Source of the DNA: Dehalococcoidia bacterium | GTDB taxonomy: Bacteria; Chloroflexota; Dehalococcoidia; UBA2979 | DNA: 64,000 bases | Direction of reading: 5' to 3' | NCBI GenBank assembly: GCA_963667465.2 | Contig: CAXXDN010000002.1 | Coordinates: 512,001-576,000 of the forward strand | Part shown: one piece after another, positions 59,055 to 64,000 of the stretch | Position numbering within the stretch: the stretch's first letter is position 1 | Layout: the number at the start of each line of letters is the position of its first letter | Position numbers and translations under genes: made by a program | The notes under the pieces: model-generated | What the model was told of the DNA's origin: nothing | Seen by the model: the letters and a program-made list of their open reading frames with translations, nothing else | The model's database searches: none

Positions 59055-59480
59055 ATGTCCGATGACACTGCGGCCAGCGACATCGAGGCGCCCGAGCCGC
59101 CCCCTGCGGGCGACCCAAACCTCGGCTATTTCTCGGTCAGCCTGTCGGTGAGCGACCTCGCGGTCTCGCAGGAGTTCTACGAGCAGCTCGGCTTCGAGCC
59201 GCTCGGCGGCGGCGAGGGCTGGCTGATGATGCGCCAGGGCGGCGCGATGATCGGCCTCTTCGAGGGGATGTTCGAGGGCAACATCCTGACCTTCAATCCT
59301 CCCGACGTGCGCGCCGTCCGCAGCCGCCTCGCCGAGCGCGGCCTCGAGACCGAGCTGCTGCACGAGATGCCGGACGGCCAGGACCCCTCGGTCGCGCTCC
59401 CGGCCACCGGGGACGAGGGCCCGGCGCACGTCGTCCTCGAAGACCCGGATGGCAACGCCATCCTGCTCGACCAGTTCTAG
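59055..59480 (+). CDS. VOC/glyoxalase family protein
   Basis: LGYFSVSLSVSDL..SQEFYEQLGF, IGLFEGMFEGNILTFNP, GPAH..LEDPDGNAILLDQ. Confidence 0.88.
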   Translation: MSDDTAASDIEAPEPPPAGDPNLGYFSVSLSVSDLAVSQEFYEQLGFEPLGGGEGWLMMRQGGAMIGLFEGMFEGNILTFNPPDVRAVRSRLAERGLETELLHEMPDGQDPSVALPATGDEGPAHVVLEDPDGNAILLDQF

Positions 59481-59493
59481 CGAGGCCTGCCGA

Positions 59494-61929
59494 ATGCTCG
59501 TCTCCCTCAAGTGGCTGCGCGACTACGTCGACCTTCCGGACGACCTCGACGTCGAGGCGTTCGCGGAGCGGCTGACGATGGCCTCGGCGGAGGTCGAGGG
59601 CATCGAGCGCGTCGGCGGCTGGGACCGCGAGCTGGTGACCGTCGCCGAGGTGCTCTCGGTCGACCCGCACCCGAACGCCGACCGCCTCAAGCTCGCGACG
59701 GTCGATTGCGGCACGCCCACGCCGCATACGGTGGTCTGCGGCGCGCCGAACGTCGCCGCCGGGCAGCGCGTCGCCTTCGCGCGCGTGGGCGCGACGCTCG
59801 TCGATCCGCGCAGCGGCGAGAGCGCGACGCTCAAGGCCGCGCGCATCCGCGGCGTCGAGTCCTCGGGGATGGTGCTGTCCGAGCGCGAGCTGGGGCTGTC
59901 CGAGGAGCACGAGGGCATCCTCGAGCTGCCGGGGGACGCGCCGGTGGGCGCGCCGCTCGCCGACTACCTCGGAGACGTGGTGCTCGACGTGCACACCTGG
60001 CCGAACCGCGCCGACATGATGAACATGGTCGGCGTCGCCCGCGAGGTCGCCGCCGTCCTCGGCTCCGCGCTGCGCCTTCCGGACAGCGCCCACGCCGAGA
60101 GTGACGAGGCCGTCGAGGACGCCGCCGCCGTCGCGATCGACGATCCGGACCGCTGCGCGCGCTACATCGCCACGGTCATCGAGGGCGTGCGCGTCGGGCC
60201 CTCGCCGCGCTGGCTGCAGGAGCGCCTGCAGGCCGCCGGGCAGCGCCCGATCAACAACGTCGTCGACGTCACGAACTACGTCATGCTCGAGCTCGGCAAC
60301 CCGCTGCACGCCTTCGACGCCGACCGCCTGCAGGGCACGGTCGTCGTGCGCCTCGCAAGCGAGGGCGAGCGGCTGAGGACGCTCGACGGCGAGCACCGCG
60401 AGCTGAGCGACGACACGCTGCTGATCACCGACGAGAGCGGCCCGATCGCCCTCGCGGGCGTGATGGGCGGCCTCGAGAGCGAGGTCCACGAGGGCACGAC
60501 GCGCGTGCTGCTCGAGGCCGCGCAGTTCGACCCCGCGAGCATCCGCCGCACCTCGACGCGGCTGCGGCTGCGCAGCGAGGCCTCCTCGCGCTTCGAGCGC
60601 GGGCTCTCGCCGGAGCTGGCGGAGCACGCCTCGCGCCGCGCGACGCAGCTGCTGGTCGAGGTCTGCGGCGGCACGGCGCGGCGCGGCACGGTCGACGTCT
60701 ACCCGCGACCGCAGGGCGCCGCCCGCGTGACGCTGACCCGCGACCGCCTCGACACCGTGCTCGGCTTCCACGTCCCCGACGCCGAGGTTGAGTCAGCCCT
60801 CCGCACGCTCGGCTTCACGGTCGCCCGTGAGGGCGGCGCGGACGGCGGCGCGGAGCGCTTCCTCGTCGAGTCGCCGTGGTGGCGTACCGACGTGACGATC
60901 CCCGACGACCTCGCCGAGGAGGTCGTGCGTATCGCCGGGTACGACCGGCTGCCGGCGACGACGGTGCGCGGGCGCGTGCCCTCGTACGAGCCGGCGCCGC
61001 TGCCGGCGCTGCGCGACCACGTGCGTCGCGCGCTCGCGGCGGCGGGGCTGCAAGAGGTGATCAACTACTCGCTGACCACGGGCGAGACGCTGAGCCGCGT
61101 CCGGCCCGCCGCCGAACTGGAGGCGAACGCGCCGCTGCGGCTGCGCAACACGCTCTCCTCGGAGCACGAGGTGCTGCGCACCTCGCTGCGCCACTCGCTG
61201 ATCGAGACGGTCGACCGCAACCTGCGGGCAGGCGCCGACGAGATCGCGATCTTCGAGGCAGGGCGCAGCTATACGCCGCGTCGTGGCGAGGACGGCCCGT
61301 TGCCCGACGAGCGCGAGGTCGTCGCCGGCGCGCTCTGCGGCGTCGAACGCGACCGCTGGGGCAGCCCGCTTGAGCGTGCCCTCGGTTTCTTCGACGCGAA
61401 GGGCGTGCTCGACGAGCTGGGCGAGCGCCTCGGCGTCGCCTTCGAGTACGAGCCGCACGAGGAACACGGCCTGCTCGCCGGTCGCTGCGCGCGCGTCAGC
61501 GTCGGCGGGACGGCCGTCGGCACGCTCGGCGAGGTGCACCCCGACACGCTTGAGGCGTTCGGCGTCGAGCAGCCGGTCGCGCTGTTCGAGCTCGACCTCG
61601 CGGTGCTGCTTGAGGCCACGCCCGGACGGCGCAGCGCCGAGCCGGTGCCGCGCTTCCCGGCGGTGGAGCAGGATGTCGCGCTCGTCGTCGACGAGGGCGT
61701 CCCGGCGGGTGCGCTGCGGGCGCTCATCGAGCAGTCGCGGCTGGTCGCGGAGGCGCGCGTCTTCGACGTCTACCGAGGCGAGCAGCTGCCCGCGGGCAAG
61801 AAGTCGATCGCCTTCGCAATCCGCTACCAGGCGTCCGACCGCACGCTCACGAGCGAGGACGCCAACCGCGAGCAGGCACGCATCCTCCAGCGCCTCGCCC
61901 GCGAGCACGGCGCGGAGCAGCGTGTGTAG
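59494..61929 (+). CDS. pheT: Phenylalanine--tRNA ligase beta subunit
   Basis: HPNADRL, VVCGAPN, RGVESSGM, PNRAD, INNVVDVTNYVMLE.G.PLHAFD, SSRFERG, DLAEEV.RI.GY, FDVYRG. Confidence 0.98.
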   Translation: MLVSLKWLRDYVDLPDDLDVEAFAERLTMASAEVEGIERVGGWDRELVTVAEVLSVDPHPNADRLKLATVDCGTPTPHTVVCGAPNVAAGQRVAFARVGATLVDPRSGESATLKAARIRGVESSGMVLSERELGLSEEHEGILELPGDAPVGAPLADYLGDVVLDVHTWPNRADMMNMVGVAREVAAVLGSALRLPDSAHAESDEAVEDAAAVAIDDPDRCARYIATVIEGVRVGPSPRWLQERLQAAGQRPINNVVDVTNYVMLELGNPLHAFDADRLQGTVVVRLASEGERLRTLDGEHRELSDDTLLITDESGPIALAGVMGGLESEVHEGTTRVLLEAAQFDPASIRRTSTRLRLRSEASSRFERGLSPELAEHASRRATQLLVEVCGGTARRGTVDVYPRPQGAARVTLTRDRLDTVLGFHVPDAEVESALRTLGFTVAREGGADGGAERFLVESPWWRTDVTIPDDLAEEVVRIAGYDRLPATTVRGRVPSYEPAPLPALRDHVRRALAAAGLQEVINYSLTTGETLSRVRPAAELEANAPLRLRNTLSSEHEVLRTSLRHSLIETVDRNLRAGADEIAIFEAGRSYTPRRGEDGPLPDEREVVAGALCGVERDRWGSPLERALGFFDAKGVLDELGERLGVAFEYEPHEEHGLLAGRCARVSVGGTAVGTLGEVHPDTLEAFGVEQPVALFELDLAVLLEATPGRRSAEPVPRFPAVEQDVALVVDEGVPAGALRALIEQSRLVAEARVFDVYRGEQLPAGKKSIAFAIRYQASDRTLTSEDANREQARILQRLAREHGAEQRV

Positions 61930-62091
61930 GACCGGCTCCCGCCGCCGCCTCGCGGCCCGCGCACTCCCGGCCCTTGTCCGGCCTTTGTCATTTCTGGAAG
62001 GTTGGAGCATACTCCAGCCATGAGTACCGGAAACTGGTTCGGGAGTCTTGTGCGCCGCGTCTTCGGGGGCGGCGGGAATGGGGAGGTGGCG

Positions 62092-62826
62092 ATGGCCACG
62101 ACAGAGGACTGGGCGGGCCTCAGCCAACGGCTGATGTCGAGCGTCGGGACCGACGTGCCGCCGATCGCGATCACCTTCTCGGACGCGCCTCCCGACGGCG
62201 TGGACGCCTTCGACGACCCGATGCCGCCGCCGCTCGAGGACGGCCGCACCGGCCGCGTCTCGGCCGGCTGCGTGTTCTGGATGAAGTCCACGGACCGCAC
62301 CTTCTCGACCGTCGCCGAGGACCACGGCAACTGTAGCGTCGGCAGCCTCACGCACGGTCTCAAGACGCTCGAGGAGGTCGGCGGCAACTCCGACGTGGCC
62401 GCGATCCTCGAGTGCGGCTGGGTGACGATGGACATCGTGCCGCTGATCCCGGTGGTCACGGAGAAGCCGGGCGCGATCACCTACGGCCCGCTCGCCGGAA
62501 CGCCGATCGACCCGGACGTGGTGATGCTGCGCGTCACCGGGCGCCAGCTGATGGTGCTGTCAGACGCGCTGCCGGACCTGAGCCTGCAGGGCAAGCCACA
62601 GTGCCACATCGTCGCGATGGCGAAGGAACACGGAGTCGCAGCCGCGAGTGTTGGCTGACAGCTCAGTCGTGTACGGACCGGGATGTCCAACTCCGAAATG
62701 ACCTGCGCGATTCCGGCAAACCAGCTGGCCGACGTCGTCTCGAAGATCGAGGCGGCCGGCGGCGCCGACCTTGCCGTGGCGGGCTACGCCGCCGAGGATG
62801 CGAGGCGCTTCCCTCCGGTGAACTGA
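62092..62826 (+). CDS. DUF169-family protein with an in-frame TGA (candidate selenoprotein, Sec189)
   Basis: SD GGGAGG then ATG 62092 (alternative ATG 62020). AGCVFW, HGNCSVG, YGPL...PDVV, GKPQCH, AASVG-TGA-QLSRVRTGM...EMTCAIP...YAAEDARRF; next stop at 62824-62826. Confidence 0.8.
62667..62696 (+). promoter_or_regulatory. Candidate bacterial SECIS hairpin
   Basis: Hand fold UCG-U-GU-AC-GGAC[CGGGAU]GUCC-A-AC-UC-CGA; apical loop starts 20 nt after the UGA and has G at position 2. Confidence 0.5.
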
Positions 62827-62855
62827 CGCCGAGGGCGCGCTGGCAGCGAATACCG

Positions 62856-62886
62856 GACGGGGCGGCTCAGCCGCCCCGTTTGCTTG
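62856..62886. terminator. Intrinsic terminator between the convergent DUF169 gene and rplT
   Basis: ACGGGGCGGC-tca-GCCGCCCCGT followed by TTGCTT. Confidence 0.65.
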
Positions 62887-62889
62887 CCC

Positions 62890-62921
62890 TCGGGAGTAGC
62901 GGCGTCGGGAGTAGCGGCGTC
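62890..62921. repeat. 15-bp tandem duplication next to the rplT stop codon
   Basis: TCGGGAGTAGCGGCG twice, plus TC. Confidence 0.85.
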
Positions 62922-63276
62922 AGGCCAGGGCGGCCTGGGCGCGTGTGGCGAGCTGGCCGAAGGCCTCGGGCTCGCGGGCCGCGAGGTCCGCAAGCATCTT
63001 GCGGTCGATCTCGATGCCGGCGCGCTTGAGGCCCTGGATCAGGCGGCTGTAGCTGAGGCCGTGCAGCCGGGCTGCCGCGTTGATGCGCACGATCCAGAGG
63101 CGGCGGAAGTCACCCTTGCGTTCGCGCCGGTGGTCGGTCGCGTAGCGCATGGCGTGCAGCACCGACTCGTTCGCGACCTTGAAGTTGCGATGGCGCTTGC
63201 CACGGTGGCCGCGTGCGCGGCGGAGGATCTTCTTGTGGCGGGCGCGTGTGGCGACCCGATTGCGCGTGCGCGGCAT
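62920..63276 (-). CDS. rplT: 50S ribosomal protein L20
   Basis: RARHKKILRRARG, DHRRERKGDFRRLWIVRINAA, GLSYSRLI.GLK.AGIEIDRKMLADLA. Confidence 0.98.
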   Translation of the reverse strand: MPRTRNRVATRARHKKILRRARGHRGKRHRNFKVANESVLHAMRYATDHRRERKGDFRRLWIVRINAAARLHGLSYSRLIQGLKRAGIEIDRKMLADLAAREPEAFGQLATRAQAALA

Positions 63277-63295: not shown

Positions 63296-63490
63296 CTAGC
63301 GGCCGAGCAGCGTGCGGAGGCGCTTGCGCTGCGTCGGGTGCGCCTCGTGCAGGCGACCGAGCGCCTGCAGCTTCTCGCGGCGCTTCTTCATGCGCTTGTT
63401 GTTGAGGTGATGGGCGCGGACCATCAGCTTCCCGCTGCCGGTCACCTTCACACGCTTCGCCGCACCGCGGTGCGTCTTCATCTTGGGCAT
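63296..63490 (-). CDS. rpmI: 50S ribosomal protein L35
   Basis: MPKMKTHRGAAKRVKVTGSGK. Confidence 0.97.
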   Translation of the reverse strand: MPKMKTHRGAAKRVKVTGSGKLMVRAHHLNNKRMKKRREKLQALGRLHEAHPTQRKRLRTLLGR

Positions 63491-63556: not shown

Positions 63557-64000
63557 CTACGAGTCCGCTGCCGCCTCCGCAGCCTCCGCCTTCGGGTCGC
63601 GCATCACGACCATCGAGAGCATGCGTCCCTCCATTTGCGGCGGCCGCTCGACCGTCGCGACGTCCTCGATGCGCGAGTAGAAGCGATCCAGCAGGTCGCG
63701 GCCCACCTCCGGGTGGGTGATCTCGCGCGCGCGGAACATGACCGAGATCTTCACCTTGTCGCCCTCGGCCAGCAGCTTGCGCGCGGTGCGCGCCTTGAAG
63801 GCGATGTCGTGCTCGTCGATCTTGACGCGCATCCGCACCTCGCGCAGCGAGGAGTGGCGCGAGGACTTGCGCGACTCGCGCTCCCGCTTGGCCTGCTGAT
63901 ACTTGAACTTGCCGTAGTCCATGATCCGGACCACCGGCGGGCTGGCCGTCGGCGCGACCTCGACGAGATCGAGGTTCGCCTCGTCGGCGACGCGCTGCGC
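63557..64000 (-). CDS. infC: Translation initiation factor IF-3 (5' end outside the window)
   Basis: DLVEVAPTASPPVVRIMDYGKFKYQ, IDEHD, GDKVK...FRARE. Confidence 0.97.
   Translation of the reverse strand, partial: AQRVADEANLDLVEVAPTASPPVVRIMDYGKFKYQQAKRERESRKSSRHSSLREVRMRVKIDEHDIAFKARTARKLLAEGDKVKISVMFRAREITHPEVGRDLLDRFYSRIEDVATVERPPQMEGRMLSMVVMRDPKAEAAEAAADS

Follow-up and report, generated by a model that had tools for sequence, protein, structure and literature searches.

In this work, a gene of the DUF169 family was analysed in a 64,000-nucleotide (nt) stretch of DNA from a Dehalococcoidia bacterium (assembly GCA_963667465.2, contig CAXXDN010000002.1, forward-strand positions 512,001 to 576,000), which is called the window below. 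On the sequence evidence, this gene at 62092-62826 is very probably a genuine selenoprotein gene that uses the known bacterial recoding mechanism. The reading frame opening at ATG 62092 on the plus strand meets an in-frame TGA at 62656-62658, which is codon 189, and the table-11 list of open reading frames (ORFs) ends the gene there, at 62658. Beyond this TGA the frame continues for 55 sense codons up to a stop TGA at 62824-62826, and the read-through product has 244 residues, with selenocysteine (Sec) predicted at position 189 and five Cys at 60, 81, 108, 171 and 205. An earlier inspection of the letters, made without database searches (the sequence-only reading), had described the ORF stop, the continuing frame, the peptide that it encodes, the position of Sec and the number of Cys in the same way, and all of this was reproduced here. 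The assignment to DUF169 (PF02596, COG2043) proposed there also holds: the read-through protein scores 61 bits against the Pfam profile, its residues 14-217 aligning with profile positions 2-208 of 209, whereas the truncated protein reaches 41.6 bits over residues 14-159 (profile positions 2-141), both products passing the gathering cut-off of 27 bits. Within NCBIfam, no family model was matched to the 244-residue protein. The start at 62092 is consistent with the N-termini of orthologues, MATT(E/Q)DW. The features that concern the Sec codon are as follows, with nucleotide positions given after a plus sign counted from the U of the UGA, SECIS standing for selenocysteine insertion sequence, and L054 denoting a divergent metagenome contig with the Sec form of the gene.

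62092..62826, plus strand: DUF169 (PF02596) coding sequence, 244 codons and stop, predicted Sec codon 189; based on Pfam, orthologues and an AlphaFold2 model
62656..62658, plus strand: in-frame TGA, predicted U189 in the motif SVG-U-QLSRVRT; based on TGA/Cys pairing in orthologues and homologues
62650..62705, plus strand: 56-nt block, invariant in 11 Sec forms including synonymous sites; longest invariant run of the gene
62668..62690 (+13 to +35), plus strand: 23-nt stretch, invariant also with L054; longest invariant run of the whole gene in the 12-form comparison
62675..62688 (loop +24 to +29), plus strand: candidate SECIS apex GGAC / loop CGGGAU / GUCC, all pairs kept in both sequence variants

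A six-frame search of 41 related genomes gave a DUF169 orthologue in 23, and 20 of these loci were read at the Sec column, the remaining three (G021, G022 and G034) being matched without stops. TGA was found at codon 189 in 11 of the 20 loci, all of them from the source genus and the source genome included. The other nine carry a Cys codon (TGC in eight, TGT in one), and they come from the source genus in eight cases and from a second genus of the family in one. By species genomes, the TGA form is present in 11 of the 19 of the source genus. Two orthologue rows had been listed with one TAG each; these are Cys forms in which the alignment ran past the gene's own stop. The final stop of the 11 Sec-form genes is TGA, TAA or TAG depending on the species, and these genes together with L054 keep the full downstream frame with no additional stop or frameshift. 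The sequence-only reading had expected Cys opposite the TGA from a remembered motif S(L/V)GC..(S/G)R. The motif is valid for this subfamily as SVGC.LSRVRT, and Cys occupies column 189 in 118 of the 120 best database homologues. The other two (P0010 with 188 residues and P0027 with 212 residues) end exactly at ...SVG and are therefore considered gene calls truncated at the Sec codon. Many full-length Cys-form homologues share 67-84% identity with the DUF169 protein, and in 56 diverse sequences (down to 27% identity) H78, C81, C171, G188, C189 and R193 are conserved at 90% or more. The Sec form is thus like the Cys-containing DUF169 proteins in length, in domain and in the shared C60, C81, C171 and R193, and unlike them in having Sec in place of Cys189.

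Degenerate DNA motif scans extended this comparison. Among genome contigs, 10 loci with TGA were obtained, all from the same clade and probably from the same genomes as the orthologue set, and among metagenome contigs one clearly more divergent Sec form was obtained, that of L054. No Sec form outside this one clade and L054 was found in either set of contigs; the scan motif required VGUxLSRVRTGM, and Sec forms of other DUF169 subfamilies would therefore be missed. A PF02596 scan of 401 sampled genomes of the phylum gave a match in 114 of them (a tally that includes G077, a genome flagged as unpublished, which is the sole basis of no claim made here), with a stop within the match only in the source genome (G000). 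In everything searched, the Sec form belongs to one clade of one genus. Moreover, two cluster representatives from public metagenomes, P0122 (237 residues, 82% identity) and P0149 (120 residues, 96% identity), end at residue 188, that is, at the Sec column, and therefore more Sec-form variants exist than the DNA scans recovered. The truncation by standard gene callers that had been foreseen is real, since public calls such as P0010 and P0122 end the gene at residue 188. Contigs of two DNA studies are identical to the window across 62000-62900; they are possibly the assembly's own source and were therefore not counted as independent. On the other hand, contigs from two metatranscriptome libraries of different studies, covering parts of the gene only, span the TGA unchanged, and the metatranscriptome contigs of related strains differ from the window only outside 62650-62705. 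The TGA is accordingly not unique to the assembly, since 11 species-level assemblies share it with one metagenome contig and with contigs of two RNA libraries.

The machinery for Sec insertion, whose lack in a near-complete genome the sequence-only reading had named in advance as a ground for abandoning the prediction, is present as a whole. The source genome (2.97 Mb, two contigs, 93.6% complete) contains tRNA-Sec (77 bits; called SeC by ARAGORN, with anticodon TCA), selA (517 bits), selB (299 bits) and selD (358 bits), all exceeding the curated cut-offs. The selD gene has an in-frame TGA of its own, and fdhA has the classic CNRT-U-H Sec site. In at least 12 other genes of this genome, an in-frame TGA falls on the known Sec position of a catalogued selenoprotein family. 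The read-through proteins confirmed by Pfam are an AhpC-TSA peroxiredoxin, four UGSC proteins, a thioredoxin-like protein with WUQFC, a rhodanese plus CBS protein and a ferredoxin-thioredoxin reductase beta chain (CHU). A CMD/AhpD-like protein with CKWU scored 20.2 bits, just below the cut-off of 23, and a fifth UGSC gene was assigned by motif alone. The loci are listed here with in-frame TGA or motif as the basis, L085-L093 being the peroxiredoxin, UGSC, thioredoxin-like, CMD/AhpD-like, rhodanese plus CBS and ferredoxin-thioredoxin reductase beta genes.

G000 C1:106777: selD, in-frame TGA
G000 C2:1517823: fdhA, in-frame TGA
G000 C2:314888-316369: fifth UGSC gene, by motif
G000 C1:262091-262600, C1:1026489-1028282, C2:955813-957540: Sec loci L085-L093, first three
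G000 C2:912015-912860, C2:495177-496967, C2:1165246-1165896: Sec loci L085-L093, next three
G000 C2:1144965-1145699, C1:711873-712700, C1:536923-537330: Sec loci L085-L093, last three

The read-through translation of the fifth UGSC gene becomes Arg/Ala-rich after about 170 residues, unlike its paralogues, and this tail may reflect a frameshift, an assembly error or a shorter protein. A genome-wide scan for readthrough TGAs by codon score gave two hits at strict thresholds, none of them known genes, and 164 candidates at relaxed thresholds, which were sorted by eye with the clear cases checked against Pfam. The DUF169 gene itself fails the relaxed filter because of its odd local codon usage, and therefore the Sec genes counted here are a lower bound. 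Apart from such sites, TGA serves as a normal stop codon in this organism, ending 491 of the 1182 long ORFs with high GC content at third codon positions. With at least 13 Sec genes including the DUF169 gene, the source genome is a Sec-rich Chloroflexota genome. Most of the sequence runs that contain the DUF169 gene are labelled as sponge metagenome or as coded organisms.

The codons downstream of the UGA behave as part of a protein-coding gene. Within codons 190-244, the variable sites of the 11 Sec forms number 3 at the first, 3 at the second and 12 at the third codon position, and these numbers rise to 8, 8 and 32 when L054 is included. By comparing the source gene with L054, 21 synonymous and 8 non-synonymous codon differences were counted downstream of the TGA, similar to the 97 and 33 upstream of it. 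As judged from this pattern of substitutions, the reading frame downstream of the UGA is under coding constraint. An AlphaFold2 model of the read-through protein, calculated from a 56-sequence alignment, has a mean predicted local distance difference test score (pLDDT) of 96.3 and a predicted template modelling score of 0.92. Residues 190-244 are modelled as two helices, the second a long one (209-239), separated by a strand (203-208), with block-mean pLDDT of 86-98. According to this model, a product of 188 residues would be without all three of these elements.

In the Sec forms the nucleotide sequence around the UGA is constrained at synonymous sites too, whereas the Cys forms encode the same peptide at the block with varying, GC-ending synonymous codons. 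The 11 Sec-form genes represent 11 distinct nucleotide sequences, which vary at 108 of 735 sites. The 56-nt invariant run that they share starts 6 nt before the TGA, and the next longest runs of the gene are of 29, 27 and 26 nt; after shuffling of codon columns, a run of 56 nt was reached in 61 of 5000 shuffles. When L054 is added, 249 of 735 sites become variable and the 23-nt core persists, a length reached in 31 of 5000 shuffles. This core includes the hairpin GGAC-CGGGAU-GUCC, which had already been noticed from the letters together with its loop 20 nt after the TGA and the G at loop position 2; these three points stand. The sequence comparison gives good grounds for a constrained RNA element at the UGA, within 62650-62705, and the case for it is made because of conservation and not because of folding energy. 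Codon usage is also atypical at this place, with log-odds of -0.37 and -0.36 for the 12 codons on either side of the TGA, compared with a genome median of 0.49 and a 5th percentile of -0.13 in 40-codon windows. The A/T-ending codons that the sequence-only reading had considered to be expected if RNA structure constrains them are as it listed them, with atypical log-odds, but those upstream of the TGA are not themselves invariant. In 62626-62655 of the window the codons GGA, GCA, AGT and GTT vary among Sec forms (GCA/GCT/GCC, AGT/AGC), and the codons there are A/T-richer in Sec forms than in Cys forms, outside the invariant block.

The bacterial SECIS is read by SelB, and the type example is that of E. 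coli fdhF. The DUF169 element resembles it in lying within the coding sequence directly after the UGA, in having an apical loop about 20 nt away and in carrying G residues there. Its apex consists of GGAC (62675-62678), CGGGAT (62679-62684) and GTCC (62685-62688), with the loop beginning 20 nt past the A of the TGA. Five candidate structures were scored on both sequence variants (the 11-genome form and L054), and the 4-bp core at 62675-62688 is the sole one with no broken pair in both, a single divergent sequence being unable to settle the structure. One of the alternatives is the fold of minimum energy:

62666..62702 (+11 to +47), plus strand: alternative interrupted long hairpin, RNAfold minimum energy of -11.6 kcal/mol in the source sequence

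This long hairpin is invariant within the 11 genomes, but in L054 C-A and G-A stand in place of two pairs, and the comparison does not support it; the lower pairs of the stem-loop proposed from the letters are likewise broken by two changes in L054 and are not supported. A fold with the UGA in the stem loses one pair in L054. In the 11 other Sec genes of the genome, the best contiguous hairpins have 5-10 bp and -5 to -14 kcal/mol, and their loops start at +16 to +35, mostly at +20 to +24, and commonly contain GUG, GGC or GGUCU. With its start at +24 and a GGG within it, the DUF169 loop fits the position in most of these genes and matches the spacing of fdhA, unlike the stem, which has 4 bp as against 5-10 bp. 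The criteria of bSECISearch place the apical loop at about 16-37 nt from the UGA with a G near the loop start. A hairpin of this geometry is present in the DUF169 gene, within its most conserved 23 nt, but it is weak, at chance level and not supported by covariation.

Several observations weigh against the interpretation as a selenoprotein gene with a SECIS of this kind. The 11 Sec-form genomes are close kin (93-100% protein identity), and therefore their agreement is partly shared ancestry. L054 breaks pairs in both of the longer candidate structures, and the covariation that the sequence-only reading had proposed to look for did not appear, as no compensatory base change is present in the candidate hairpin among the 11 Sec forms and L054. 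With 4 bp and -3.3 kcal/mol, the DUF169 hairpin is the weakest among the 12 Sec genes of the genome, and contiguous hairpins at least as good, with the loop at +18 to +30, are found in the source genome after 43% of the 491 TGAs that serve as ordinary stops and likewise after 43% of 1182 coding positions taken at random. RNAfold z-scores of three stretches against shuffles range from -0.44 to +0.11, and folding energy was therefore dropped as evidence. No SECIS family of Rfam was matched in 62400-62950 at E up to 10. Rfam SECIS models are lineage-specific, and therefore the missing match weighs little. The contigs from RNA libraries do not prove transcription. Furthermore, the Sec column is occupied by C in 12, by D in 11 and by G in 5 of 29 more typical DUF169 proteins of the phylum, with a gap in the one left, and the family as a whole therefore does not depend on this residue. 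Finally, in the protein tree discussed below, the support of the branch for a single origin is weak (73/32), and 69% of bootstrap trees give one change.

Three other explanations of the TGA were weighed. That it is a sequencing or assembly error, or a nonsense mutation private to the strain, is scarcely credible: nothing in its favour was seen, and the same codon occurs in 11 distinct species-level sequences and 10 named contigs (probably overlapping with them), as well as in the unrelated metagenome contig L054 and in the contigs that two other studies obtained from RNA libraries. It is very unlikely that the TGA is a real stop giving a truncated protein of 188 residues, alone or along with a separate product of 47 residues that starts at ATG 62683, or marking a pseudogene. 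Table 11 and the public calls agree with such a stop (P0010 with 188 residues, P0027 with 212 residues, P0122 ending at 188), but the downstream codons are under in-frame coding constraint, and the TGA with the full downstream frame persists in 11 species and L054. Moreover, the truncated protein would lose the modelled helix, strand and long helix of 190-244, its Pfam score falls from 61 to 41.6 bits, and the invariant block is centred on the TGA.

An equally small chance is given to a readthrough of the UGA that takes place with no selenium, by a near-cognate Trp or Cys tRNA or by leaky termination, in which case the conserved block would promote readthrough and not the binding of SelB. The DUF169 hairpin, weaker than those of the 11 other Sec genes and at chance level, would suit this explanation, as would the absence of a SECIS match in Rfam, and selenium insertion, like the exact SECIS structure and the chemical role of residue 189, is something that we infer. 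However, the organism encodes the whole Sec pathway along with at least 12 further Sec genes, the Cys column of the homologues is the classic Sec/Cys pairing, and the distance from loop to UGA is as in most other Sec genes of the genome. Keeping a change from Cys to stop across 11 species would also be costly if decoding were inefficient.

What the sequences show in silico is a conserved in-frame UGA with its Cys/Sec pairing, the Sec machinery, the downstream coding constraint and the nucleotide constraint. It is very probable that the gene at 62092-62826 gives a full-length DUF169 protein of 244 residues in which UGA 62656-62658 is decoded as selenocysteine via the bacterial SelB and tRNA-Sec pathway. 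Recoding would be directed by the RNA element just downstream of the UGA, within 62650-62705, for which the best-supported core would be the small hairpin at 62675-62688 with its G-rich loop 20 nt after the UGA. Sec189 would substitute the Cys that is near-invariant in this DUF169 subfamily, and it would stand in a G-C/U-x-L-S-R motif alongside the family-wide C60, C81 and C171, where it may act as a catalytic redox residue or as a ligand of a metal or cluster. A maximum-likelihood tree was calculated from 42 proteins after masking of the Sec/Cys column, with the root assumed among distant Cys forms. One change accounts for the 12 Sec rows in this tree, which fall within the Cys forms and next to a Cys clade of the same genus. 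Both selA and tRNA-Sec are also present in five of the five Cys-form relatives tested. The simplest reading is that a single switch from Cys to Sec, within a lineage already using Sec, arose in one clade of a sponge-associated Dehalococcoidia genus.

Sec is almost always found at a catalytic redox position or at a metal-ligand position. In the 29 typical DUF169 proteins, which come from the loci L055-L084 in other genera of the phylum, the other positions of interest are much more uniform than column 189 and nearly fixed, with C60 in 28, C81 in 24, C171 in 27 and R193 in 28 of them. It appears from these alignments that DUF169 has subtypes differing at position 189. Three fixed Cys together with a position occupied by Cys, Asp or nothing may be what a metal or cluster site shows when its fourth ligand is variable, and alternatively the same pattern could belong to a redox site with a resolving residue. 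A sequence-profile search of the PDB returned nothing relevant to DUF169 (E 0.7), and Foldseek of the AlphaFold2 model against the PDB gave no hits at E of 0.001 or below, with a best template modelling score of about 0.2-0.3. The ESM Atlas pointed, with a score of 0.90 but a recognition under the reliability mark, to the GGGtGRT family (PF14057); this lead was rejected, being unsupported by Pfam for four homologues at E up to 10. In the literature, DUF169 is a STRING partner of YedE in Slackia (PMC5322559), adjoins a TauE-like exporter in Desulfovibrio G20, where a nitrate-fitness phenotype was recorded (PMC4001038), lies near MerR and HgcA in Nitrospina (10.1101/648329) and is now and then found near SepRS in archaea (PMC8762117). 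These hints are too thin to name a function.

The remaining features of the locus surround the gene on both sides.

61985..62013, plus strand: promoter-like site TTGTCA, 17-nt spacer, CATACT; one found against 0.1 expected from shuffles, by consensus match only
62082..62086, plus strand: GGAGG, Shine-Dalgarno-like motif, 5 nt upstream of ATG 62092
62857..62879, no strand assigned: GC-rich 10-bp hairpin with the look of a terminator, arms 62857-62866 and 62870-62879, loop TCA

The promoter-like site lies between the stop of the upstream ORF (61929) and the DUF169 gene. The hairpin at 62857-62879 sits between the DUF169 gene and a convergent minus-strand ORF at 62920..63276. The sequence-only reading had placed a terminator here, and a GC-rich hairpin does exist at this place, but the terminator scan passed over it on account of its weak T tail; in the Rfam scan of 62400-62950 at E up to 10 it weakly matches only the terminator ends of small RNA models. 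The upstream neighbour is a long plus-strand ORF at 59449-61929. By eye, this ORF and those at 62920-63276, 63296-63490 and 63557-64000 on the minus strand look like pheT, rplT, rpmI and infC, respectively. The DUF169 gene is wedged among these apparent housekeeping translation genes, and therefore its context is uninformative on function. Many short contigs of high depth from four sequence runs map only to positions 62588-62627 of the window (40 nt, encoding GKPQCHIVAMAKE) and have flanks of their own; they probably derive from other DUF169 genes of the same communities.

The mechanism of recoding by SelB and SECIS is not new, and the possible novelty lies in the family. An inventory of prokaryotic selenoproteins from May 2026 lists 119 families or subfamilies in its Table 1, including DUF166, DUF523, DUF1573, DUF1858 and DUF3179 (PMC13188914). 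DUF169/PF02596 is absent from this Table 1 of 119 families or subfamilies, and none of the papers returned by the full-text searches describes DUF169 as a selenoprotein, these searches covering neither supplementary tables nor BSepDB and NCBI records. It is therefore probable that the DUF169 selenoprotein is so far uncatalogued. In the kind of evidence, DUF169 is like the predicted Sec/Cys-pair families of the same table (DUF166, DUF523, DUF1858 and UGSC; Table 1, PMC13188914), which have in common with it a UGA at a Cys column, Cys homologues, TGA orthologues, a hairpin and the Sec machinery. It is unlike them in its motif G-U-x-L-S-R, with no CxxU or UxxC partner nearby. Taken jointly, the claims that DUF169 is an uncatalogued selenoprotein family, that its Sec is the fourth, variable (C/D/G) member of a redox or metal site formed with C60, C81 and C171, that the switch was recent and confined to one clade, and that the SECIS is an unusually small one of 4 bp make up a proposal whose chances of holding and of failing we consider evenly balanced.

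If the interpretation of the DUF169 gene as a selenoprotein gene is true, one family would be added to the 119 already catalogued in prokaryotes, and a gene that public calls now cut at 188 residues would regain its full length. A SECIS of 4 bp would moreover narrow what the SelB of this lineage must recognise. For the organism itself, a Sec-rich genome with at least 13 Sec genes is documented in a sponge-associated Chloroflexota lineage. DUF169, found in 114 of the 401 sampled genomes of the phylum, is a family of no known function, solved structure or recognisable fold relative. A natural switch from Cys to Sec, taken together with the usual placement of Sec, therefore means that residue 189, with C60, C81 and C171, would point to the working site of DUF169.

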